A stretch of 64,000 nucleotides of DNA. Source: an uncultured archaeon. Its GTDB lineage: Archaea; Altiarchaeota; Altiarchaeia; JAFGQM01. The notes under the pieces were generated by a model. The model did no database searches, had not been told where the DNA came from, and was given only the letters and a program-made list of their open reading frames with translations. The stretch is from the NCBI GenBank assembly GCA_964592405.1, contig CAZQBY010000001.1, forward strand, positions 50,459 to 114,458. Reading direction: 5' to 3'. Every line of letters begins with the position of its first letter. The stretch's first letter is position 1. The position numbers were made by a program, and so were the translations under genes. Positions 16,557 to 28,636 of the stretch are shown piece by piece.

Positions 16557-16681
16557 GGGCCCGTAGCCTAGTCAGGATAGGGCGACAGCCTTCTACGGCC
16601 TTTTCTTCATTTGGGGAAGAACGGTTCGCTAAGAGATCCGGAGAAAGCTGTAGATCGCGGGTTCGAATCCCGCCGGGTCCG
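16557..16681 (+). tRNA. tRNA-Arg(TCT) with 50-nt BHB intron at 37/38 (16596-16645)
   Basis: Anticodon stem ACAGC/GCTGT, CT-TCT-A; central helix CTTC/GGAG with 3-nt bulges; T-arm GCGGG-TTCGAAT-CCCGC. Confidence 0.95.
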
Positions 16682-16687
16682 TCCTCA

Positions 16688-16749
16688 TTCTTCTTGGCTT
16701 AGCCTCGGCCGAACCCGGCTTATGTCAGGGAGGGTGGCTAAGCGAGGAA
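16688..16749 (+). repeat. tRNA 3' trailer hairpin module (5' half repeated after tRNA-Thr, 26869-26903)
   Basis: ttcttggcttagc and cccggcttatgtcag occur after both tRNAs; gcttagcc pairs with ggctaagc. Confidence 0.8.
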
Positions 16750-18844: not shown

Positions 18845-18960
18845 CTATTATCTTACGTCTGCCGACTGAAAAACCGTTTTTACCGTTAAATAAATTATGC
18901 AGCAGGCAGAGTTATTTAACGGGTCAGGTCAAGTTGAAAGACGCTAGATGAAGACTTGAC

Positions 18961-19035
18961 CTTTTTATGTTCTCTTGCTATAATATCCCAGTCAGGCCGG
19001 CGAGTCGCTTATGCAAGCATCGCTCGCCCAGACTG
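18961..19035 (+). promoter_or_regulatory. tRNA-Trp promoter plus 5' leader hairpin (homolog at 26555-26635)
   Basis: CTTTTTATGT...AATATCCC then hairpin cagtc/gactg, ggcgag/ctcgcc, gctt/aagc. Confidence 0.75.
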
Positions 19036-19081
19036 TAACGGGGTCGTAGGGTAGTCTGGCATCCTCGCAGGCTCCAGAGAA

Positions 19082-19186
19082 CCCCTTTTCTTCAGAAGAA
19101 AAGGTGCGCGAGGTTCGCGAAAGCGAACCCGCGCCCAAGTTCACAAAAGTGAACTTCGGGCTTCACCCCCCTAAAAGAACGGGGTG
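19082..19186 (+). repeat. Four-hairpin intron-embedded element, copy 1
   Basis: Near-identical to 26707-26806 within tRNA-Thr intron. Confidence 0.93.
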
Positions 19187-19208
19187 TTTAGCATTTTTAA
19201 TTTTCAGG

Positions 19209-19265
19209 AAGAGGACTTTGGAGCACCGAGCCGCAAATCGCGGTGATGACGAAACGCGGGTATAC
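19209..19265 (+). ncRNA. Intronic box C/D guide RNA of tRNA-Trp (predicted Cm34 guide)
   Basis: Box C-like AAGAGGA, guide CTTTGGAGC complementary to GCTCCAGAG, D' CCGA, C' TGATGA, second guide GCGGGTAT complementary to ATACCTGC. Confidence 0.8.
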
Positions 19266-19392
19266 GCTTCGGCATGGAGATACCTGCTGACCCGGGTTCA
19301 AATCCCGGCGACCCCATCCTTACTTATGCTAGAGATAGCTCGGATGTGGTCGCCTTACGTTGGAGCCGTCTGCCTGGCATGTCCATCCCAAC

Positions 19393-19408
19393 ATCCCGGC
19401 GACCCCAT
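19393..19408 (+). repeat. 16-bp direct repeat of tRNA-Trp 3' end
   Basis: atcccggcgaccccat identical to 19302-19317. Confidence 0.9.
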
Positions 19409-20515
19409 TCATCCCAATCTAGGCTCGCACACTATATCGTATAGCTGACCCAGCCTTTTGACCATGACATCTAAGGAGTACTCTTTCTCCACCAGCTTCC
19501 TCCCATGTCTGGCAAGCTTCTTCCTCCTCTTCTTGTCCTCGATGAGCGCATCCACCTTCTCCGCCAGACCATTGGCGTCTCTTGGCTCTATCAGGAATTC
19601 GGGATCTATTACATCTTTAGCGATTCCTGTGTTGGTCGCTATACATGGTGTTCCAGAGGCGAGCGCCTCCAGCAGAACGATACCTTGGGTTTCCATCTCC
19701 GATGGCATAACAAACAAGTCAGCAGCTGCAAAAGCCTGCGGAATCAACTCATCTGGCAGATAGCCTGTGAAGATTATATTTGGCATGTCCCTGCACATTT
19801 TCCTAAGCTTCTCCTCGAGCTCTCCTCTGCCGGAAACAACAAAAACGGCATCAGATTTTGATTCTATAGCCGCGCGAAGGAAAGTTTGTGGGTCTTTCTT
19901 GTGCTCCAAACGCCCAGCAAAGAAGACCATCGGCCTGTCTGGTATTCCATAGCGGTCCCTGAATTGCTGGGAATCAATATCCGGGCTGAATTTTTTTATG
20001 TTAACCCCATTGGGTATTATCTCAATATGTCTTCCAAGCTTTCTTGCCTCCAGCTGGGTCTTCACCCATTCTGAGGTTGCAATAACAACATCACATTTTC
20101 TGTACAAATATATCAGATACTGCCATGTCGGCCATGTTAGCAACCTGCCACCTGCAGAGTCCAGGGGTACCAGTGCTCCGAAGATTGCAGCCGGATCAGT
20201 ATGGAAACTGCCTACCAATGGCTTTCCAAGCCTCTTTGAAATTTTTATTCCATAGTAAAACATCCCATAAGGAGTATGATTATGAATCAGGTCAAAGTCC
20301 CTTGCCTCTTTTTCCAGCCAGCCGGTGTTTAAGGCGATTTTATATTCGGGAAACAGAGGGAATGGAATACCTGATACCCCTGTCACGTCTGGATGCTTTA
20401 TTGGACCAAATATCTGGTCATCCCAACCTTTTTTTGTGTGGTGCAACCCATAGAGGATGGTGGCTATGCCGTTATTATGTGGAATATATGTATCCGTGAA
20501 GTTTGCAATTCTCAT
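19409..20515 (-). CDS. GT4 glycosyltransferase
   Basis: FTDTYIPHNNG, GRLEHKKD, PSEMETQGIVLLEALASG. Confidence 0.92.
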   Translation of the reverse strand: MRIANFTDTYIPHNNGIATILYGLHHTKKGWDDQIFGPIKHPDVTGVSGIPFPLFPEYKIALNTGWLEKEARDFDLIHNHTPYGMFYYGIKISKRLGKPLVGSFHTDPAAIFGALVPLDSAGGRLLTWPTWQYLIYLYRKCDVVIATSEWVKTQLEARKLGRHIEIIPNGVNIKKFSPDIDSQQFRDRYGIPDRPMVFFAGRLEHKKDPQTFLRAAIESKSDAVFVVSGRGELEEKLRKMCRDMPNIIFTGYLPDELIPQAFAAADLFVMPSEMETQGIVLLEALASGTPCIATNTGIAKDVIDPEFLIEPRDANGLAEKVDALIEDKKRRKKLARHGRKLVEKEYSLDVMVKRLGQLYDIVCEPRLG

Positions 20516-20520
20516 CTTTC

Positions 20521-21915
20521 TTACGCCACCTCATAGATTTGCGAATCCCCAGAGGAGAAGACAACCGTTCCAATCTCAGAAAATTTGTCTGTATCAAAGC
20601 CGTAATTCCAGACATCCCGCGCATCTACAACGACATAATCCACACCATATCTCCCCAATATGTTGCGCGCCTCTTCCGGATCGCTGGTTTTCAGCACATG
20701 ATACATTCTCTCCCATCTGGTGCTATCAGGTATGCATTCCAGAAACAAATCAAACTCCGTTCTTATTGAGGGAGACATTAGCAGTGTATTTATCGCTCCA
20801 GAGATCTCAGGATTTGCAAGCACTGTGCTGTCTCTAATATGATCCCTTATCCAGTAGATAACAGCCAAGTCATCATTCGAGAGGGCAGGCCTGACCATTG
20901 CCACGGCCAAGAAAGACATAACCAGCATCACCACCAACACAATTATAACATACCTCCTCTCAAGCCTTGCTTCAGGCAGTACAAAGCAGAGGCTAAAGCC
21001 AAAGAGCAGCAGTTGGTCATATGGATGCAGTTGTGGGAATATCAGAGAGAGCAGAAACCCCACAACAGCTAATCCCAATACCACCCTCCAAAACAACATA
21101 TAATCATCATTTCTTTTTCTGAGCCAATAAAGCAGGCCAAAGCCTATCAGAGTAACAAATGGGGCCATGATGAGGAGATAGCCCATGCCTGCGCTGGTCA
21201 CAGATGAGACTGCAGTTGACGGATCAAAACACTTACCTGCCCGACTGAATGATACCAACAACCAAGGGGATACCAGTCCGACACCAATGGTTATGATGAG
21301 TGCCGCATAGAGGAGGGAAAGCCTCCTGCCTCTTCCCAGCTTTATAAGGCTGAAGACTGTAATCACAGCCACTATTGTGAGGCTTATGAAATAGTTGAAG
21401 AGTATGCAAGTAGCCAGTATGCCGCCTCCCAGAATGTATCTGCCTCTGAGGAGACAATAGGCTATCAGTGGGAAGAGCAACAGGCCAAATATCTGCGGGC
21501 TGTCATAGGACTGCGCTGTTATTATCGGATTTAGGGCTGTGAAAGCAGCGCCCAGAACTGCAGCCTCTACGCTGCGGTATTTCCTTATCAGAAAGAAGAT
21601 AGGCAGGATAAGAAGTGCACTCGCCAGAGGCAGTATGTATTTTACCAGTTCAATAGCCGGGATTCCTGATATTATACTCGTATAACCCAACAACAGATGA
21701 TATAACGGCGGATACAGATGAGGTCTCCCTCCTGCTGCATAATCCCAAGATGGGACCCAGCCGGTTTCCGCCACAATCTGTCCTATGCGCGCGTGATATA
21801 TCGAATCAAAATTGACCAGAAAATCGTTGGTCAGTGGGGGGTATATCCGGATGCTCAGACTCAATAAAAACAGGCCTATGATAACATATCTAACCTTCAT
21901 TGAGAACCACCTCAT
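20521..21915 (-). CDS. Multi-pass GT-C-fold (STT3/PMT-like) membrane glycosyltransferase
   Basis: NFDSIYHARI, GRPHLYPPLYH, >10 TMs, soluble C-domain YGVDYVVV; located in GT cluster. Confidence 0.7.
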   Translation of the reverse strand: MRWFSMKVRYVIIGLFLLSLSIRIYPPLTNDFLVNFDSIYHARIGQIVAETGWVPSWDYAAGGRPHLYPPLYHLLLGYTSIISGIPAIELVKYILPLASALLILPIFFLIRKYRSVEAAVLGAAFTALNPIITAQSYDSPQIFGLLLFPLIAYCLLRGRYILGGGILATCILFNYFISLTIVAVITVFSLIKLGRGRRLSLLYAALIITIGVGLVSPWLLVSFSRAGKCFDPSTAVSSVTSAGMGYLLIMAPFVTLIGFGLLYWLRKRNDDYMLFWRVVLGLAVVGFLLSLIFPQLHPYDQLLLFGFSLCFVLPEARLERRYVIIVLVVMLVMSFLAVAMVRPALSNDDLAVIYWIRDHIRDSTVLANPEISGAINTLLMSPSIRTEFDLFLECIPDSTRWERMYHVLKTSDPEEARNILGRYGVDYVVVDARDVWNYGFDTDKFSEIGTVVFSSGDSQIYEVA

Positions 21916-22891
21916 AGACTTCTTTTAACTGCATGCCCACCTTCTCTAGGGAATGCTCCTTCACACTCTCCAGCCCATTCCTGATCAGGCGTTTCCTCAT
22001 GTTGCCATCCTCAATCAGTTGTCTTAGATAATCCTCAAATTCCTCATCAGTTTTCGCTCGTAGGCAGTCTTTTCCATCACGAGTCCAGTCGCGAAAGACA
22101 GGCAGATCGCGTATCAAAACAGGTCGCCCCATAGCCCAAGCCTCCAGTATGACTATGCCCTGCGTCTCTGCAAGCGATGGAAAAAAGAATATGTCTCCTG
22201 CTGAATAGGCTGCTACTATATTATTGACATAACCAGTAAACCTGACGTTATCCGGCTTGCTTTCTAGGGCTTCATCCAGCTCCTTGTTTCTGGCCAGACC
22301 TCCCCTGAAAACATTGCCAAACCATATGAACTGGTTCTCAAAACTCCGTGCCACTTCTATGAACGTTCTGACACCCTTTCGCATGAAGACATGACCCACG
22401 GAGAAGGGAACCATGCCTTCCATCCCGTATCTCTCCCTGTATTCCTGCCTTTCTCTTTTGCTAAACCTGAATCTGTCCAGGTCAACACCATTGCTCACAG
22501 TTGTTATTGACTGTTTCAGCCCGTATTTCTTAAGCTGGTTTTTTGTGTATTCGCTGGGACAAATTATATGATCAGCCTGACCATAAAAGAATTTGAGATA
22601 TCTCTTGAAAACCGGAGCCAGTGTGTTACTCATAACAAAGCTGTTACGGGTATCCTCCTCCAGTGTGTGGGCATGTATGATAACCTTTCTGCCCTTCTCT
22701 TTGGCTAGTTTGGTGTAGAACAGGGATTTTGGAAATATGGTATTTATATGGAGGATATCATAATCATCCAGCGGGTTTGTAGTGTATTCCACCCCGGCCT
22801 TTTCCAATGCCTTTTTTTGTCTCTCCAGTGCTACCCCTATGCCGCTTCTTCTCAGCAGCAGATTGCCCTCAAGATACAGGCACACCCTCAT
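21890..22891 (-). CDS. GT4 glycosyltransferase (CpoA-like)
   Basis: SGIGVALERQKKAL, HAHTLEED, FFPSLAETQGIVILEA. Confidence 0.9.
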   Translation of the reverse strand: MRVCLYLEGNLLLRRSGIGVALERQKKALEKAGVEYTTNPLDDYDILHINTIFPKSLFYTKLAKEKGRKVIIHAHTLEEDTRNSFVMSNTLAPVFKRYLKFFYGQADHIICPSEYTKNQLKKYGLKQSITTVSNGVDLDRFRFSKRERQEYRERYGMEGMVPFSVGHVFMRKGVRTFIEVARSFENQFIWFGNVFRGGLARNKELDEALESKPDNVRFTGYVNNIVAAYSAGDIFFFPSLAETQGIVILEAWAMGRPVLIRDLPVFRDWTRDGKDCLRAKTDEEFEDYLRQLIEDGNMRKRLIRNGLESVKEHSLEKVGMQLKEVYEVVLNEG

Positions 22892-23987
22892 TTTCTAAAT
22901 CCTCATAAATCCTCACAAGCTTTTTGATAGTATTCTCAATACTGTGCTTCCTTGCATGTTTTTTTGAGGACGATTTTAATCTTCTGAGATTCCTGTAGGA
23001 CATCTCTACTTTTGTCTTTAAGTCGCTCAGATCTCCGGGTTTGTAGTGGTAACCATTAACTCCAGCCTCTATGGTTGTCTTTAGAGCCATTGCATCAGCA
23101 CCCACTGCCGGCGTTCCACAGGCGTTTGCCTCTAAAACTACGAGTCCTTCTGTTTCAGCTGTGGAAGGCAATATCAGAAGATCCAGACAGGAATAAAACT
23201 CCGGTAGCCGGTTCCTCGGAAGAAAACCAAGAAAGCGGACGTTTTTCTTTCCCTCCGCAAGTTTCTTGTACTCTTCATGCTGTTTGCCCCCGCCGACTAT
23301 CAGAATTGTTCCGTCAAATTCGTCAGCAAAATTTATTAAATCCTCCAGACGCTTCTCCCAGGAGTGCCTGCCGGCGAATCCGATAATCCTACCGTCTGGA
23401 ATATCATAGTCACTTTTGAACTGGTCCGTTCTCGTCTCTTTGAAGAAGTCAGTGTCTATTCCATTTGAAAATGCTATTGTTTTGGAGATGTATCTGCCAA
23501 GACGCTCCCTGAGCAGATTTATCAGAACAGGGGATGGAGCAGTTATCAGCTGGCATCTCTCAAGAAGCTCCTTCTCATATCGGTAATAAAATACCTTGAG
23601 TGATGCTTCTACCAAGGGGTTGGAGCTTATCTGCCTGATATAGAGGTCGGGGGGAGTATGGTAGGTCAGCACCCGCGGCACCCTCTGCTTCCTAGCCACG
23701 GCCAGCCCGAGAGTTGCCATGGTGACGAAGCCGTGGAGGTGAACCATCTCCAAATTTTTTTCTATCTTCTTGAAGGAGGGCAGGCCTATCCTGTATCCCT
23801 CATAGAAGAAGAACGGAATGGAGGGGAGCGGAATCTCGTTATGCTGGGGTTTGTAACCCTCATCCTTTGGATAATAAAGGAAGACCTCATGACCCAGCTT
23901 CTCCAGCTCCCGCTTCCAGAGGCTGACCGTGTAGGTAACGCCGTTTATCTGCGGAAAATATGTGTCTGTGAAGAAGCCTATTTTCAT
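22869..23987 (-). CDS. GT4 glycosyltransferase (diacylglycerol glucosyltransferase-like)
   Basis: FTDTYFPQINGV, GRHSWEK, PSTAETEGLVVLEANACG. Confidence 0.92.
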   Translation of the reverse strand: MKIGFFTDTYFPQINGVTYTVSLWKRELEKLGHEVFLYYPKDEGYKPQHNEIPLPSIPFFFYEGYRIGLPSFKKIEKNLEMVHLHGFVTMATLGLAVARKQRVPRVLTYHTPPDLYIRQISSNPLVEASLKVFYYRYEKELLERCQLITAPSPVLINLLRERLGRYISKTIAFSNGIDTDFFKETRTDQFKSDYDIPDGRIIGFAGRHSWEKRLEDLINFADEFDGTILIVGGGKQHEEYKKLAEGKKNVRFLGFLPRNRLPEFYSCLDLLILPSTAETEGLVVLEANACGTPAVGADAMALKTTIEAGVNGYHYKPGDLSDLKTKVEMSYRNLRRLKSSSKKHARKHSIENTIKKLVRIYEDLENEGVPVS

Positions 23988-24000
23988 CTTAAAACATCCC

Positions 24001-24990
24001 CTAAATTATCTTTAAGAGAATGTAAAGCAAGGTCCAGAAGAGAGTGTTGTTGATTACTATCACGAGTATCTTTCGCGAGAGCGCCTTCTCGGTCATCGGC
24101 CCCAGCTTGCTTATGATGAGCTTGGCGAAATCCAGTTTGCCCGATTTGGGGACGTGCAACCTGCCGTCTTTCAAAACGTAGGGTCTCTCCTTCTTCTGGC
24201 TCATGTCCTCCGGATTGGTCTTCAGCTTGAGCAGTATGTCATATATGTGGGGCGCGAACAGCCCTAGGGCCAGATACCACTGATCTATGAAGAGGACCAT
24301 GCAGCCGGCGAAGGCACCGAAGAGGAGTGTGCCGCTGTCGCCGGGGAAGATGCGTGCAGGATAGCGGTTGAAATAAAATAATCCTCCTGCGGCCCCAACC
24401 ATTATCAGACCGAGGATTATAAGCGTGTCAGTATAAATGCGGGAGAAGGTAACCATGATTGTCAGACCTGCCAGCACTATCGTGGAGGATCCTGTCTCCC
24501 AGCCGTTGAGTCCGGCAAAGGAGTTGAACAGCGATGCTGTTGCAAGGATAAGGAAGCTCCCCAAGACCATATAAAGATACAACCCTATACCGCATTCGTT
24601 GATAACCGACGGGAGCACCAGATATGTGAAGGGCAGGGTAAAAATGAAGAGAACAATCGCGCGATTGACAACATATTTTGTCCACCTCTCCTCTCTCTTG
24701 AACAGCCGAAAGCCGTCATCAAAAAAGCCTATTGCGGCAAAGCATGTAGTGGTAAACAGAAATACGTATGCCAGCGGATTTATAACCTCAAAATGTACCA
24801 ACAGCAGGACGGGTATCCATATTCCGGGCAGGATGAGTATGCCACCGGATTCGGGAATGCGGGGTTTATCCCCTTTGTTTATATCCACGCCACTGATACC
24901 AAAAGACAGCATCCTGTCCTTCAGCAGCCGGATCAGGATCAGTACCAGCACAAAAGGGACAGCGAATACTAGGGGGTATGTCCACTCCAT
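24001..24990 (-). CDS. UDP-GlcNAc:polyprenol-phosphate GlcNAc-1-P transferase (MraY/Alg7/AglH family)
   Basis: GVDINK..IPESGG, IGFFDD, NSFAGLNGWE, NRYPARIFPGDSGT. Confidence 0.9.
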   Translation of the reverse strand: MEWTYPLVFAVPFVLVLILIRLLKDRMLSFGISGVDINKGDKPRIPESGGILILPGIWIPVLLLVHFEVINPLAYVFLFTTTCFAAIGFFDDGFRLFKREERWTKYVVNRAIVLFIFTLPFTYLVLPSVINECGIGLYLYMVLGSFLILATASLFNSFAGLNGWETGSSTIVLAGLTIMVTFSRIYTDTLIILGLIMVGAAGGLFYFNRYPARIFPGDSGTLLFGAFAGCMVLFIDQWYLALGLFAPHIYDILLKLKTNPEDMSQKKERPYVLKDGRLHVPKSGKLDFAKLIISKLGPMTEKALSRKILVIVINNTLFWTLLYILLKII

Positions 24991-25024
24991 GGTTTTGCCT
25001 TATGTCATTATACTCTTCCAAAAA

Positions 25025-26167
25025 TCATTTCATAAGCTCCCTCAGGAGTATTGTCGCATAGGTGCCAGGAGGGAGAACAAATCTTACCTTTATGTTAGAA
25101 TCTTCTTTATTAAAACCAAGAATCATGAAGTCGCTGAACTTGGCAAGACTGCTCCGCATTTCCCCCTCCATGGCCATCTCAGGCATGGAGGGAACCCGAA
25201 ACTGTCCTTTGTGGATTTCTTCTCTTTTGAGTATCTCTTCTGTAACGTTATCTAGTGGTGTAGTATAACCAACAAGCGGTAGCTCTTTTGGCATTTCTCC
25301 AGACCTAAGGTATTCGCTTAATGCAAGATTGAATATATACCCCTGATATGCATGGATAAACATTAGTCTCAGCTTCTTCGGAAGAACCCGCAATGCGCCG
25401 ATGTAGTCTGTAGGCGTTTTTGCCAGATGATTCAATACACTTTTCTCAAAGCCCAGATAGTTGGGGAACTCTTCAAAGGCTTTCTTAAAGTCTCCTGTTT
25501 CCCTCAGCCTTTCCCTGACTGTGGTGGCTTCCTCCGGCTCGTTGCCAGTATCACAGAGAAATGACATGACAGCCTCCTTGAACTCGCCCCCGAGTATATG
25601 CCGGCCTACAAGATGGTTGTTGAGCCGCAGACCAAAGCGTTGCGTGCCGAAGAAGTTGGGCATCTTTCCATCCAGTTGCCTGATGGTTTTCTTTACAAGC
25701 TTGTCAGCATTTTTTGCAACATCGTGGATGATGACCGTAAACCGGTTTCCCTTAAGCATCCCAAGATTGACCGGTCCATCCGAAACGGAAAAGTCGCGCA
25801 GGATTATGTCCCTAATGTGCACTCCTTCTAACCTCTCTTTCGGCACTTTCCATATGGAAACCCTCTGTGCACTGACTGACCGGCGGTCTTTCGTCCCGGC
25901 AAATTTCAGTCGTTTGTGGGAGACTCCGCATGCGCGTGCAATGGCCTTAACTGCACGCATGGTGTCCCAGTTGGTCTTCTCCAGCGTGAAGTGGGTGTAA
26001 TCTCCCTGAGTGTCCTTAAAGCACTGGTTTTTACCCACCTCCAGAATAACTCCCCCAGGGGTTATCTCCTCAACAATAAAATCTCTGGGCTCCCTCTTTA
26101 AGGTCCCGCCTATGCCCTTGGTTTTTGATAAATATGCGAGCAGTCCTACCCTCTCATCAGTGGACAT
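25025..26167 (-). CDS. truD: tRNA pseudouridine(13) synthase
   Basis: DFIVEEI, FAGTKDRR, GNRFTV, PNFFGTQRFG, FIHAYQ, LPPGTYAT. Confidence 0.95.
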   Translation of the reverse strand: MSTDERVGLLAYLSKTKGIGGTLKREPRDFIVEEITPGGVILEVGKNQCFKDTQGDYTHFTLEKTNWDTMRAVKAIARACGVSHKRLKFAGTKDRRSVSAQRVSIWKVPKERLEGVHIRDIILRDFSVSDGPVNLGMLKGNRFTVIIHDVAKNADKLVKKTIRQLDGKMPNFFGTQRFGLRLNNHLVGRHILGGEFKEAVMSFLCDTGNEPEEATTVRERLRETGDFKKAFEEFPNYLGFEKSVLNHLAKTPTDYIGALRVLPKKLRLMFIHAYQGYIFNLALSEYLRSGEMPKELPLVGYTTPLDNVTEEILKREEIHKGQFRVPSMPEMAMEGEMRSSLAKFSDFMILGFNKEDSNIKVRFVLPPGTYATILLRELMK

Positions 26168-26405
26168 CTCTGGTATCTGGGTTTCTGAGATTGATATAGA
26201 TGCCCTTCTTCAGACACTCCTTACAGAAGTATTGATTATCGCAATCAATAAGGATTGCTTCATCCCCTGATGTAACCTGCTCTATGATTGCCCTCACATA
26301 GCTGCTCCCCTTGCCGAGAACCCTTCCACAATTGGAGCAGTATTCCTTTATCTCTGTCAGGCTTTCGGGCAGCTGGGCCATTTCCGATTTATTTAGAGAG
26401 GGCAT
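26157..26405 (-). CDS. Small zinc-finger protein
   Basis: CSNC...CKEC; overlaps truD start. Confidence 0.65.
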   Translation of the reverse strand: MPSLNKSEMAQLPESLTEIKEYCSNCGRVLGKGSSYVRAIIEQVTSGDEAILIDCDNQYFCKECLKKGIYINLRNPDTRDVH

Positions 26406-26554
26406 ATTAAAAAACCTTTCTTTATAAACAAGGATGTTAAAGAGGAAAAGAATAAAAACCTCTTTAATGCGCCTTAAAAAGCTTTGCTATTCCGTTACTT
26501 TTCACCGGTGACAAGGAGTTACACTACACTTAAATGCTTTTTCGTTTTCGCACT

Positions 26555-26635
26555 CTTTTTATGTAGTGTAACACAAAATATCCCGCTTCAGATAGGCAAG
26601 TTGCTTATCCAAGCACCGCTCGCCCGAGTTAAGCG
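26555..26635 (+). promoter_or_regulatory. tRNA-Thr promoter plus 5' leader hairpin (homolog of 18961-19035)
   Basis: CTTTTTATGT...AATATCCC; cgctt/aagcg, ggcaag/ctcgcc, tgctt/aagca. Confidence 0.75.
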
Positions 26636-26665
26636 CGAGCATAATCCAAGCGAAATGAGCCGCTT

Positions 26666-26860
26666 GCCTCCGTAGCTCAGTCTGGTAGAGCGCGTCCTTG
26701 GTAGAGCCCCTTTCTTCAAAAGAAAGGTGCGCGAGGTTCGCGAAAGCGAACCTGCGCCCAAGTTCACAAAAGTGAACTTCGGGCTTCACCCCCAAAGAAC
26801 GGGGTGCTGTGGAAACAGCCAATGAGGACGAGGTCGCGGGTTCGGATCCCGCCGGGGGCT
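26666..26860 (+). tRNA. tRNA-Thr(GGT) with 121-nt intron at 37/38 (26704-26824)
   Basis: GCCTCCG/CGGGGGC acceptor, CGTCC/GGACG anticodon stem, TT-GGT-A, central helix TTGG/CCAA with TGA bulge, T-arm GCGGG-TTCGGAT-CCCGC. Confidence 0.94.
26707..26806 (+). repeat. Four-hairpin intron-embedded element, copy 2
   Basis: Near-identical to 19082-19186. Confidence 0.93.
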
Positions 26861-26899
26861 TTCCGTTATTCTTGGCTTAGCTTGAGCCCCCGGCTTATG

Positions 26900-28636
26900 T
26901 CAGTATCCTCTTTCAGACCTTCTGCGAAACTTCTCAATAATATCCAATTCAGAACGATCCCCGGGCAACTCATCTGTCTCGTAGATTCCCTCTCTTTCTT
27001 CCAGCAACCTCCTGTGGCGCCTCCTGATGAGCTTCAGCCGCTCTTCTTTGCTGAGAGGTGCCCTTTTCCGTCTCACTGGGCCTTCTAATGGCCCTCTGCC
27101 CCTCAGTTTGGCGATCTTTTCGTCTATCTCCACCATCTGCTCATCAAGTTCCTTCAGCTTTCTGAGTACGCCGGCCCGTTCCTTTCTGACTGCCGCACTT
27201 TCAGGTTGCTCCATAGTTGCCCTTAATCGTCCGGCAAATCTGCCCCTCTCAGCGGCCAGTTCTTCCCTTCTCTCTCGTAAAGAAGTCTCGGCCCGCTCTC
27301 TCATCGCCACTCTCCTGACAGCTTTCTTCCTTTCTCTTTCTGCTGCCCTGCGCAGCCTCTCTACAGCAGACTCCTTCAAATTGCCCTCATTCTCCAGCAA
27401 AAACCTTTCAAACAGTATAGCACCCTGAGGATCTATCTCGCGCATCGCCGGCAGAACCTCAGCCCACATGCGGTGCACTGTCATGTTTCCTGTCGGCAGA
27501 TGGTCAACCATCTGCCATACCTGATTTTTTGTGAGTCCATATTTTCTGGCCAGTTTTTTGACCTGACCCCTTTTGACCAGTCCTTTCTCATTCCTCGCAA
27601 GCTCTTTATACTCGGCTCTTATGCGCATGCAGAGTGCCGTCTTTCTGTATCTCTCTATACGTCTTCTGGTAAGACCTGCTAGAACTGACTTACTGCCCGT
27701 CCTTCTGTTGCCTTTCTCACCCGATCCCATCATGATTACACGCCTCAATTCCGGCAGGAAATACCGACTTTTCCTCTGATTGGTGCTGAGCCTCCGACCG
27801 CTCTTTGTAAGCGAATATGTCACAGCCCTGCCCCGTTTTCTGGCTTCCACGAGCCCGGCTGTGACGAACCTGTCAAGATATCTGTCAACGTGCTCTGTTT
27901 GTATTCCGGCAGCTTTTGCCAGTTCGCTGATGTTTTTGGGTTCAGTGCCAAGGACACTCCAGAGCTTGTATCCCATACTCTGTGTCGGAATGGGTGCCCG
28001 GTGGCTCCTCTCAGCAGCCATCCATCTGTAGGCCTGTTTGCTTCTGCGACTGCCCTCTATTGAGACCCGTTCAGCCATTCCAGCTGCTTCCAGCAGGTTC
28101 AGGGCATTTATAACCAACCGATGATTGTTTCCCGTTTTTTCGGCCAGCTCCAGAGAGGTGTGAGGACCATCCTTACGTGTCAGCTCTCTCCTGATATCAT
28201 GCAGGATATTCTTCCTCACTAGCTGATTCAGGGCTTCCAGCTTTCCGTTAATTATATCAATACCCTTAAGGCTCAGGCGTCTCTGGAGGGAAAGAGCGGC
28301 ATTCATCCATGGCAGTAGCTTATCCCTGTGCGTTCCCCTGCTCCGCACAAGCGCCTGTGCAACCTGCATGGCAGTCGGTTTATAGGGATGCCCTTTTAAT
28401 TCCCTGAGCAGGGCGCGTGCCATCTTCTTTGTGGGAAGCCTTTTGTGTCGCGGATTGCGGGCTTCAATCAACCTTATCTCCTCTGTAAGCTCTTTCTCGA
28501 TATCCTCGGGGAGTGGCTCTTTCTTGACAGGTTTGGACATATCCCTAGCAAAGCTTCCGAGCCTTTTCCTGCTCATTCCAAGGGCTTCTCTGAAAGATGG
28601 GTGTCTCGGTGGCTTTGCATTCTTCTTGGAAGCCAT
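26900..28636 (-). CDS. Large basic protein with winged-helix-like segments and C-terminal coiled coil
   Basis: TSLELAEKTG..LNLLEAAGMAER and NISELAKAAGI..LDRFVTAGLVE..YSLT resemble two wHTH domains; Arg/Glu-rich tail. Confidence 0.7.
   Translation of the reverse strand: MASKKNAKPPRHPSFREALGMSRKRLGSFARDMSKPVKKEPLPEDIEKELTEEIRLIEARNPRHKRLPTKKMARALLRELKGHPYKPTAMQVAQALVRSRGTHRDKLLPWMNAALSLQRRLSLKGIDIINGKLEALNQLVRKNILHDIRRELTRKDGPHTSLELAEKTGNNHRLVINALNLLEAAGMAERVSIEGSRRSKQAYRWMAAERSHRAPIPTQSMGYKLWSVLGTEPKNISELAKAAGIQTEHVDRYLDRFVTAGLVEARKRGRAVTYSLTKSGRRLSTNQRKSRYFLPELRRVIMMGSGEKGNRRTGSKSVLAGLTRRRIERYRKTALCMRIRAEYKELARNEKGLVKRGQVKKLARKYGLTKNQVWQMVDHLPTGNMTVHRMWAEVLPAMREIDPQGAILFERFLLENEGNLKESAVERLRRAAERERKKAVRRVAMRERAETSLRERREELAAERGRFAGRLRATMEQPESAAVRKERAGVLRKLKELDEQMVEIDEKIAKLRGRGPLEGPVRRKRAPLSKEERLKLIRRRHRRLLEEREGIYETDELPGDRSELDIIEKFRRRSERGY

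Follow-up and report, generated by a model that had tools for sequence, protein, structure and literature searches.

Introns with a repeated four-hairpin element

The stretch of DNA considered here (the window) is a 64,000-nt part of contig CAZQBY010000001.1, positions 50,459 to 114,458 of the forward strand, from an uncultured archaeon of the Altiarchaeota (GenBank assembly GCA_964592405.1). The genome to which it belongs is denoted G000, and was compared with 41 related genomes that carry similar numbers. Two tRNA genes of the window, for tRNA-Trp and tRNA-Thr, are interrupted by introns that share an element of about 100 nt. This element is a composite of two palindromic modules, not one four-hairpin RNA: its first and last hairpins (1 and 4) belong to a repeat of about 50 nt, the scaffold, and its two central hairpins (2 and 3) form a 54-nt insert, the doublet. 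The features concerned are the following.

tRNA-Trp(CCA), 19040-19316, plus strand: 5' exon 19040-19077, intron 19078-19281 (204 nt), 3' exon 19282-19316 (ARAGORN with introns allowed).
Element copy 1 (scaffold plus doublet), 19082-19186, plus strand: within-genome BLAST; fold z = -7.1.
Hairpin 1, scaffold head, 19084-19104, plus strand: CCUUUUCUU / AAGAAAAGG, a pyrimidine/purine palindrome (minimum free energy fold, class-wide alignment).
54-nt doublet (hairpins 2 and 3) of copy 1, 19108-19161, plus strand: between scaffold GGUGC and UUCAC, with a boundary ambiguous by GC.
Hairpin 4, scaffold tail, 19164-19186, plus strand: CACCCC..GGGGUG around AAAAGAA (minimum free energy fold).
tRNA-Thr(GGT), 26666-26860, plus strand: 5' exon 26666-26703, intron 26704-26824 (121 nt), 3' exon 26825-26860 (ARAGORN; boundaries from the intronless allele of G002).
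Element copy 2, 26707-26806, plus strand: BLAST, 93% identical to copy 1; fold z = -7.0.
54-nt doublet of copy 2, 26731-26784 (equally 26729-26782), plus strand: 54-nt skip relative to Arg(TCG) contigs; 54/54 identical to the Ala copy.

The original prediction, made from the sequence of the window, had described a near-identical element at these positions, and the two copies (19082-19186 and 26707-26806, the latter being C1:77165-77264 of G000) are indeed 93% identical (E 4.2e-38, BLAST within the genome). A third copy is found in the 125-nt intron of tRNA-Ala(TGC) (G000:C13:921-1020; 88% identity, E 1.7e-31), and a fourth host is the tRNA-His intron of G002, a genome of the same genus. The remainder of each intron is specific to its host tRNA, and within G000 the exact 100-mer is confined to introns. 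The four hairpins are the minimum free energy fold (RNAfold), with z scores of -7.1 (Trp copy) and -7.0 (Thr intron) relative to 200 shuffles; the reverse complements fold as well (z -7.0 and -6.4). The finer differences between copies are also as described, namely a paired T/A indel in hairpin 1 and a C/U change in hairpin 2 (G-C to G.U or A-U). No known RNA family covers the element: an Rfam scan of the whole window at gathering thresholds gives two tRNA matches only, neither of them over it, and in an E-value scan of 18950-19450 no family reaches threshold there, the best being isrB on the minus strand (19.4 bits versus 35). Exact-match scans for the junction of hairpins 2 and 3 return only the tRNA-His gene of G002 among genome contigs, and one contig of the same organism among metagenome contigs.

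It is extremely improbable that the copies result from misassembly, that is, from one repeat copy misthreaded into other tRNA loci of a metagenome-assembled genome (MAG). Logan contigs from four DNA runs, aligned to 18900-27000, do break inside the repeat, as is normal for k-mer graphs, and one run has a chimeric contig that joins the Ala 5' exon, the doublet and the Thr 3' side. However, a separate 1250-nt metagenome contig carries tRNA-Trp with the same 277 nt, including the 204-nt intron. One Logan contig (24264-26783; 2520 nt, 0 differences) starts in unique DNA upstream of tRNA-Thr, crosses its 5' exon and reaches hairpin 3, and others (runs X1 and X2) continue from 26764, in hairpin 3, into the Thr 3' exon and unique downstream DNA. 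The Trp copy is tied likewise to unique DNA by contigs 19051-19160 and 19141-20479. Hairpins 1 and 4 of the copies differ by private substitutions and indels, and the fourth host, with the same doublet, lies in a sister genome.

Splice motif and host tRNA genes

In all four hosts (Trp, Thr, Ala and His) the intron lies at the canonical position 37/38, and the core of the bulge-helix-bulge (BHB) motif is intact, as had been stated for Trp and Thr. The 4-bp central helix, formed by nt 32-35 and the 3' end of the intron, is CUCC/GGAG in Trp, UUUG/CAAA in Ala and CUGU/GCAG in His (4/4 pairs each). In Thr it is UUGG/CCAA with bulges UA^G and UG^A, as read by hand with the intronless allele of G002 as guide; the splice boundary given by ARAGORN is off by one base. 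Both bulges and an exon helix of 5–7 bp are present (the anticodon stem is 5 bp in Trp and Thr), while the outer helix h' has 1 bp in Trp, none in Thr, 6 in Ala and 3 in His. Hairpin 1 begins directly after the 5' bulge, in the place where h' would stand. Among solved structures, the splicing endonuclease of G000 (C2, 204 aa) is nearest to those of Methanopyrus and Methanocaldococcus.

According to the ARAGORN listing, 16 tRNAs of G000 bear introns, and in 10 of these the intron starts with a hairpin of the hairpin-1 type. Both tRNA-Trp and tRNA-Thr are overlooked by ARAGORN at its default settings and by the tRNA model of Rfam, which is a warning for the annotation of such intron-bearing tRNAs. 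Long introns also lead ARAGORN to miscalls, of tRNA-His(GTG) in G002 as Asp, and of tRNA-Arg(TCG) in G008 and G019 as selenocysteine tRNA.

A scaffold spread throughout the class

The original prediction treated the four hairpins as a single unit, and this is where it fails: hairpins 1 and 4 represent an older scaffold that occurs class-wide, and hairpins 2 and 3 are a separate insert. The scaffold consists of hairpin 1, GGUGC/UUCAYCCCC and AAAAGAA, with hairpin 4 in the family of G000. In its short form, hairpin 1 is followed by GUGC-UUCACCCC..GGGGUG (hairpin 4) without hairpins 2 and 3, as in the introns of tRNA-Arg(TCG) (69 nt) and tRNA-His (78 nt) of G000. A miniature form is found in its tRNA-Phe, and hairpin-1-like pyrimidine/purine hairpins start its introns of tRNA-Glu, -Leu(TAA), -Gly(TCC) and -Arg(TCT), the last of these within the window (16557-16681). 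A second subtype of scaffold (hairpin 1 plus GCGCCGGCGGAAAGAAA) is seen in the Glu and Leu(TAA) introns of G000 (C4:59200-59296 and C7:61938-62087), in tRNA-Thr(TGT) of G001 and in a tRNA-Arg fragment of G003, and a third (AACCTTTTCTTT..AAAACGTTGACGAAAAGAAA) in Ala and Leu introns of G001, G002 and G007, and also in G029.

A covariance model (R1) built from 9 short-form sequences finds matches (counted at E<=0.01) in 36 of the 41 related genomes. Copy numbers per genome range from 0 to 7 in the family of G000, and reach 54 in G036, 29 in G008 and 24 in G016; G004, G005, G009, G028 and G039 are without a match, in the case of G005 although its congener G007 has five. Within the family the scaffold is above all a component of introns. 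The five distinct R1 loci of G000 and the Thr copy are all intronic and in sense orientation, and in the family relatives 19 of 20 loci lie in tRNA introns, all sense and 1–4 nt past the 5' splice site, so that introns of at least 12 isoacceptors are involved. The alignment of hairpin 1, which was fitted to the structure of the covariance model, is 99.3% paired over 909 cells, with only 3 G.U cells, and 8 of the 10 pairs are changed on both sides; 146 cells are changed on both sides, a value reached by none of 500 shuffles. The unpaired tail motif UUCAYCCCCAAAAGAA is conserved class-wide.

Outside the family the scaffold is found in a wider range of positions, most of them still at genes for stable RNAs. 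In 23 of 29 genomes the best match has its AACCCC head adjoining tRNA-derived sequence (21 by ARAGORN, 2 by eye). The 29 matches of G008 represent 28 loci, 25 of which are at stable-RNA genes: 10 in tRNA introns, 6 within 0–5 nt past a tRNA 3' end, 6 directly following a shortened 5' part of a tRNA that precedes the complete gene, 2 within the 23S rRNA gene, where they are inverted relative to each other, and 1 beginning 7 nt past the 5S rRNA; the other 3 are elsewhere. In the closed genome G029 only 3 of 18 matches touch tRNA sequence, and the others lie a few bases past stop codons, just upstream of promoter-like TTATAAGAC boxes. In its behaviour the scaffold resembles the terminus of a miniature element associated with stable-RNA genes. 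Archaeal transcription terminates at oligo-T, and the T-rich head directly past tRNA and 5S ends suggests that it may serve as a terminator there.

The arrangement of fragment, repeat and full gene is also present upstream of tRNA-Arg(GCG) in G000 (C3:108000-108595, locus L144), where two tandem units each comprise the leader, the first 19 nt of the tRNA and a module of the hairpin-1 type. The same layout is seen in G003, G008, G012, G026, G029, G030 and G035.

The hairpin doublet

Hairpins 2 and 3 had been regarded as covarying relatives of each other. They are related, but hairpin 3 is more exactly a diverged, inverted copy of hairpin 2, with a GC dinucleotide common to the two. Hairpin 2 has a bulged purine on its 5' arm and hairpin 3 a bulged pyrimidine on its 3' arm, and this order (a 5'-bulged hairpin, then a 3'-bulged one, with equal energy on both strands) is found in 17 of 17 doublets, from eight genomes and four families. 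The base of the doublet is conserved (CGAGG..CCUGYGC-MCARG..CYUYGKG, GC-clamped) while the upper stems vary freely. A strict pattern for the base gives 25 matches in 7 of the 41 genomes, 6 of the 7 being in the family of G000, and a reversed control gives none. Upper stems differ at almost every locus, and only the variant of the window is present in several copies.

Three further doublets of G000 are in the trailer of tRNA-Glu, in a duplicated 3' fragment of tRNA-Pro, within its T-loop, and upstream of an open reading frame (ORF) that resembles S6e, a name given from its reading without a search; the orthologous S6e-upstream locus of G006 has a doublet with other stems. All insertion sites seen are the loop of another hairpin, whether the mini-hairpin GGUG-CUU-CACC of the scaffold, the hairpin-4 loop (Thr of G001, His of G003), the hairpin-1 loop (Ile of G008, and G022) or a T-loop. 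In the trailer of tRNA-Lys of G020, a member of a distant family, a doublet of the same framework occupies the same scaffold site. A nested BHB intron, another candidate for the doublet, was rejected by inspection: in both registers of GGUGC|...|UUCACC there is no 4-bp central helix with 3-nt bulges. The 3' part of tRNA-Pro(TGG) is itself repeated with its trailer at least twice downstream of the gene (G000:C6:6850-7450, locus L142), and one of the repeats is that with the T-loop doublet.

Filled and empty sites

Contigs with the short-form intron of tRNA-Arg(TCG) align to the Thr intron except for a gap of exactly 54 nt, with 26728 joined to 26783 (2 nt ambiguous), and the long form therefore differs from the short form by a 54-nt insert at the point where GGUGC meets UUCAC. 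Identity among the four long-form copies changes abruptly at the borders of this insert, with 51–54 of 54 positions identical in the doublet, 21–26 of 28–30 in the left flank and 19–24 of 29–32 in the right (59–90% in the flanks). The Trp doublet is 53/54 identical to the Thr and Ala copies, which are the same at 54/54, and the doublet of His in G002 stands at 52/54.

Empty counterparts, which the original prediction had suggested looking for, exist. Orthologous tRNA genes were compared in five genomes of the same family, G001 and G002 (same genus) and G003, G005 and G007 (other genera):

Trp: scaffold plus doublet in G000; scaffold only in G002 (146 nt) and G007 (200 nt); introns without scaffold in G003 and G005.
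His: short form in G000; in G002 a long form that carries the same doublet; in G003 a hairpin insert of another kind and at another site, after UUCACCCCC.
Thr(GGT): long form in G000; the same scaffold in G001 with a different doublet in the hairpin-4 loop; short form in G007.
Thr(GGT), intronless alleles: G002 (syntenic locus, leader 90% identical), G003 and G005.
Ala(TGC): long form in G000; another scaffold subtype without doublet in G002 and G007; intronless in G005; an unrelated intron in G003.

For Trp, the loop of hairpin 1, which is 8 nt from the insert, reads CAG as in the G007 ortholog and unlike the paralogs, and therefore only the 54-mer was added in this gene. The Ala gene differs. 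The 3' end of its intron (GGUUCCAAAYC) is common to G007 but the scaffold block is not, and that event therefore replaced the whole block from hairpin 1 to hairpin 4.

Whole introns of Thr(GGT) and Ala(TGC), of 50–136 nt in congeners, also contrast with intronless alleles (loci L045, L048, L054 and L059, compared with 26666-26860 and with L003 877-1079). Gain or loss of whole introns is fast, since congeners differ in intron presence at the same site. The intronless Thr allele of G002 looks more like a loss, judging from leader identities of 90% for G002 and 72% for G001.

Origin of the copies

The probable explanation is that the 54-mer has been copied at the DNA level into the loops of paralogous intron scaffolds, where it is tolerated because splicing removes it. 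One variant of the doublet would have entered the same loop (GGUGC^UUCAC) in the scaffolds of Trp, Thr and Ala in G000 and of His in G002, at about the time when the sister species separated or later. As to the route, insertion targeted to the loop has a slightly better than even chance of being correct, and short-tract gene conversion between paralogous scaffolds is a possible but clearly less likely alternative. Since endonuclease and ligase would take out the whole intron, the insert could persist as neutral cargo rather than as a working RNA. What is established here is the composite build, the occurrence of both modules across the class, orthologous sites with and without the doublet, the drop in identity at its borders and the preserved BHB core; the equally good folding of the two strands, the scarcity of G.U pairs in hairpin 1 and the antisense scaffold arms are further signs of palindromes at the DNA level.

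Several points weigh against this explanation. The analysis found no enzyme or mechanism for the copying, and no link of the repeats to Y1 transposases. The doublet is not bordered by a target-site duplication, and all that is seen there is the 2-nt GC ambiguity. The Ala block differs in subtype from its orthologs, so that one event or more must have involved a longer stretch than the 54-mer. Intronic scaffolds are all sense and at the same distance from the splice site (19 loci in relatives, 6 in G000), an orientation bias that could mean a role at the RNA level, for example as a stand-in for the outer BHB helix, though the loci are not independent events because many of them are orthologous. 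Most doublets are unique in their upper stems, not identical copies, and the site upstream of S6e is kept in two genera with different stems; on both counts the doublet looks more like a selected structure than a proliferating parasite. The unpaired stretch of the scaffold is conserved across families of the class, which is beyond the usual for selfish repeats. Finally, all of the relatives are draft MAGs except one, the closed genome G029.

If the element were instead a functional structured RNA under selection, either a domain that binds protein or defines the splice site, or a stable circular RNA that the splicing endonuclease releases from several tRNA hosts, the fixed sense orientation 1–4 nt past the 5' splice site (19/19 intronic loci in relatives, 6/6 in G000) and the start of hairpin 1 directly past the 5' bulge, where the outer helix would be, would fit well. 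So would the GNRA and UUCG-type loops, the doublets that stay paired with wholly different upper stems over four families, and the compensatory changes of hairpin 1, with its 146 both-sided cells and 0/500 shuffles as high in an alignment fitted to the model. On the other hand, sister genomes can do without the element (empty sites in Trp and His, intronless Thr and Ala), the two strands fold equally well, G.U pairs are nearly absent (3/909 cells), and no Rfam family matches. Its modules also occur antisense, past stop codons, in 23S rRNA and in intergenic DNA. A functional RNA is thus unlikely, and it keeps what weight it has because of the sense orientation, the conserved unpaired bases of the scaffold and the restemmed doublets at an orthologous site. 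It is likewise doubtful, if a shade less so, that nothing moves at all, and that ectopic gene conversion keeps the four copies alike in scaffolds descended from one ancestral long-form intron, the short forms being deletions. All four sites have homologous flanks (hairpins 1 and 4) that could prime recombination, the Ala block differs wholly from its G002 and G007 orthologs while the intron 3' end is orthologous, and the doublet at the same scaffold site in the distant G020 is as expected if the long form is ancient. But the step in identity falls exactly at the doublet ends (51–54/54 versus 59–90%). Because the Trp loop CAG, 8 nt from the insert, is ortholog-like and not paralog-like, every conversion tract would have to stop only a few bases away from the insert; and doublets are also found in hairpin-1 and hairpin-4 loops and outside scaffolds.

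DNA-level copying of the doublet preserves part of the original prediction, which had proposed a mobile element with tRNA introns as a safe harbour. Palindromic non-coding DNA has been copied between unrelated introns and is absent from sister orthologs, yet the 100-mer is not the unit. The prediction had itself named a generic REP-like repeat as the outcome that would speak against it, and this is partly what is seen: both modules also occur outside tRNA introns (past tRNA and 5S 3' ends, in a 23S rRNA gene, past stop codons, and ahead of the gene for a ribosomal protein), although in G000 the exact 100-mer is confined to introns. For the further idea that tRNA genes act as expression cassettes for non-coding RNAs, no support was found.

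Transposases and viruses

Repetitive extragenic palindromes (REPs) and the bacterial interspersed mosaic elements (BIMEs) that they form can be moved by a Y1 transposase, of the REP-associated tyrosine transposase (RAYT) or IS200/IS605 type, acting on single-stranded hairpins. Such a transposase is a very improbable agent here. The inverted pairs of imperfect, bulged palindromes do correspond to the architecture of BIMEs and REPINs, with 17 of 17 doublets built in this way, and G000 has a Y1_Tnp fragment (C1:66-212). This fragment, however, lies at a contig edge and is broken by a TAG stop, and Y1_Tnp is present in only 13 of the 41 genomes; none was found in G016, G023, G022, G035, G040 and G014, which have 13–24 scaffold copies each. 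In G007 and G002 the Y1 genes are adjoined by hairpins of the type CCCCGGAC..GUCCGGGG, which are unrelated, and no cognate Y1 gene flanked by the repeats was found. Mobilisation by RAYT or IS200-type enzymes was rejected on these grounds, Y1 genes being unlinked to the repeats and the fragment of G000 itself bearing a stop. The fragment (locus L032) covers positions 71–119 of Pfam Y1_Tnp, with the TAG in frame; for the TnpB-type domain PF07282, G000 has sub-threshold matches only.

A parent transposon for the scaffold was not found in a search that covered Y1 transposases, other transposase families not being searched. The window copies, with a single scaffold each, have no terminal inverted repeats of the kind that define miniature inverted-repeat transposable elements (MITEs), and there is no target-site duplication at the doublet or at the intron ends, the one direct repeat being the 7-nt GTACACA in the 23S rRNA gene of G008. 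A viral or plasmid-like source was also considered and rejected, and the lack of a viral match counts against the copying explanation. The scaffold pattern has no match in IMG/VR; the doublet pattern has 9, which are attributed to chance in GC-rich contigs because none folds as a doublet (the BLAST collections of phages and plasmids were not searched).

Inverted scaffold pairs as whole introns

Antisense copies of the scaffold are the second arm of inverted pairs, and in some relatives such pairs form entire introns, as in tRNA-Ala of G008 (158 nt), tRNA-Asn of G031 (122 nt) and tRNA-Val of G034 (136 nt). The order is a scaffold in the plus sense, one to three hairpins, and a scaffold in the minus sense, with the two heads paired directly beside the BHB bulges. 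In the Ala intron of G000 the head GAGCCC pairs over 6 bp with GGGUUC at the 3' end of the intron, and this 3' partner looks like the remnant of a second head.

The 23S rRNA gene of G008 is split by an inverted scaffold pair (locus L124, G008:C5:5700-6700, at about 405-547), with an Rfam large-subunit rRNA match of 750 bits across the insert, which is bordered by the direct repeat GTACACA. In the minimum free energy fold the two copies of GUAC form a 4-bp helix, the ACA copies are bulges on opposite strands, and the paired heads are the outer helix. In this predicted fold, cutting the bulges 2|1 would restore one copy of the repeat, that is, an uninterrupted rRNA. No such direct repeats are present at the ends of tRNA introns.

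It may be proposed, tentatively and at less than even likelihood, that miniature transposable elements specialised for stable-RNA genes have the scaffold as their terminal repeat and carry part of their own splice signal. Two inverted heads would pair in the transcript and provide the outer helix directly beside the BHB bulges, and the tRNA-splicing endonuclease and ligase of the host would then excise the element from tRNA and rRNA precursors. In the 23S rRNA of G008, the GTACACA repeat, which starts with the palindrome GUAC, would supply both strands of the central helix and both 3-nt bulges. If this is true, new BHB introns have a concrete origin in such elements, and those of the window are descendants that have decayed and been invaded further. 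That direct repeats supply the central helix of tRNA introns was rejected. The 3' strand of this helix is truly complementary to nt 32-35 and changes from tRNA to tRNA, and because this complementarity is matched host by host, a repeat alone cannot create a tRNA intron. The scaffold has either entered older mini-introns or needs another step.

Relation to known systems

The REP, BIME and REPIN sequences of bacteria are short, imperfect palindromes with oriented bulges, arranged in inverted pairs and in mosaics with other motifs; they are extragenic and often lie at the 3' ends of genes. The modules described here have a similar placement in the closed genome G029. They differ in that no associated RAYT was found among the genomes compared, copies number in the tens and not hundreds, the sequence of the base is conserved across families of the class, and the modules are strongly associated with BHB introns and with the genes of tRNAs and rRNAs.

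MITEs are also known from archaea. As in these, the scaffold of the relatives takes the form of terminal inverted repeats of about 50 nt around a short non-coding core, once with a 7-nt direct repeat (23S rRNA of G008). In contrast to MITEs, the copies of the window have a single scaffold without an inverted partner (Ala keeping a 6-nt remnant), tRNA sites show no target-site duplication, and no parent transposon emerged from the Y1 search. The intron of archaeal pre-tRNA-Trp houses a C/D box guide RNA, which is a precedent for a functional RNA carried in a tRNA intron, and in the Trp intron of the window C and D box motifs likewise follow the element. The repeated element itself is different, as it is without C/D or H/ACA boxes and is absent from orthologous Trp introns.

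Another parallel is provided by the transposed tRNA introns of Thermoproteales, near-identical introns that are distributed across isoacceptors (Fujishima et al. 2010, cited in PMC4090602 and bioRxiv 10.64898/2026.10.13.758758); according to the two citing texts, gain at the DNA level is thought likely and the mechanism is not known. With Trp/Thr identity at 93% and Trp/Ala identity at 88% over about 100 nt, the introns of G000 exceed the 70–80% between isoacceptors by which transposed introns are recognised. The likeness includes near-identical sequence across isoacceptors of one genome, a preserved BHB motif and a presumed gain at the DNA level. There are three differences: what the introns of G000 have in common is a discrete palindromic insert of 54 nt, set within a scaffold that is itself a class-wide repeat, the scaffold is also found outside introns (at tRNA and 5S 3' ends, tRNA 5' fragments, 23S rRNA and intergenic sites), and the hosts are all interrupted at the canonical 37/38.

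Two further comparisons concern other organisms. In the SOS splicing of animals, as outlined in PMC12779559, the paired inverted terminal repeats of a transposon in RNA mark it for excision independent of the spliceosome. The scaffold heads that pair beside BHB bulges would be analogous to this, although in another domain of life and with other machinery (presumably the archaeal EndA and a ligase). In Caldiarchaeum subterraneum, tRNA-Thr(GGU) is disrupted by a mobile element of 1.8 kb that encodes a recombinase (PMC3293823, abstract). The similarities are an intron content of tRNA-Thr(GGU) that varies within a population or between species, and a tRNA 5' fragment upstream with inserted DNA between; the difference is that the inserts here are non-coding and 50–150 nt in length.

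The literature searched contains no description of the scaffold or doublet, the supplementary intron tables (Tables S11-S12 of the 2026 preprint, and the Thermoproteales catalogues), which might list similar sequences, being outside the search; searches with sequence strings gave chance matches only, such as the HIV polypurine tract. The finding extends known kinds, that is, transposed archaeal introns and REP- or MITE-like repeats. A 2026 census of Asgard archaea regards, in its abstract, the arrival of BHB introns in tRNA genes as still open, with no general route found (bioRxiv 10.64898/2026.10.13.758758). Here, one repeat family makes up the 5' portion of introns in tRNAs of at least 12 isoacceptor types within a single archaeal family, and whole tRNA and 23S rRNA introns elsewhere, besides its occurrence at tRNA ends and in the neighbourhood of tRNA fragments; a second palindromic module would have been copied between introns since the split of the sister species. 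Together with filled and empty alleles and a closed genome, this sequence family makes the gain, loss, targeting and excision of introns testable, and may help to explain how tRNA introns grow and spread.

Other features of the tRNA loci

Two more features of the window belong to intron-bearing tRNA genes.

tRNA-Arg(UCU), intron-bearing, 16557-16681, plus strand: anticodon read by hand; Rfam tRNA match of 55.1 bits; miscalled as Ser by ARAGORN.
C/D-box-like part of the Trp intron, 19243-19290, plus strand: GUGAUGA at 19243-19249 and CUGA at 19287-19290, outside the repeated element (read from the sequence).

The second of these agrees with the original prediction, which had placed a C/D guide downstream of the element in a Trp intron of 204 nt, the length also called by ARAGORN. 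Near it, at 19207-19251, there is a match to sR23 of Rfam that is below threshold (16.1 bits, gathering score 45).

The last 15 nt of some tRNAs (ATCCCGG, the 3' strand of the acceptor stem and the discriminator base) recur downstream of the gene, once after tRNA-Trp (19302-19316 and 19393-19407) and twice after tRNA-Ala (locus L003, about 1064-1255), with the repeats about 77–90 nt apart. In each of the spacers between them, a sequence nearly complementary to the tRNA 3' end precedes CCTTATGYCARG. Similar tRNA-end motifs are found after tRNA-Thr (26884-26903), tRNA-Arg(TCT) (16722-16738) and tRNA-Glu. These repeats look like arrays of tiny integration scars or mimics of tRNA ends. The leaders of the Trp and Thr genes (18985-19030 and 26583-26625) have in common a hairpin-like motif, GGCGAG..GCTTATSCAAGCA..CGCTCGCC, the last part of which, CGCTCGCC, is also present in leaders of G007.

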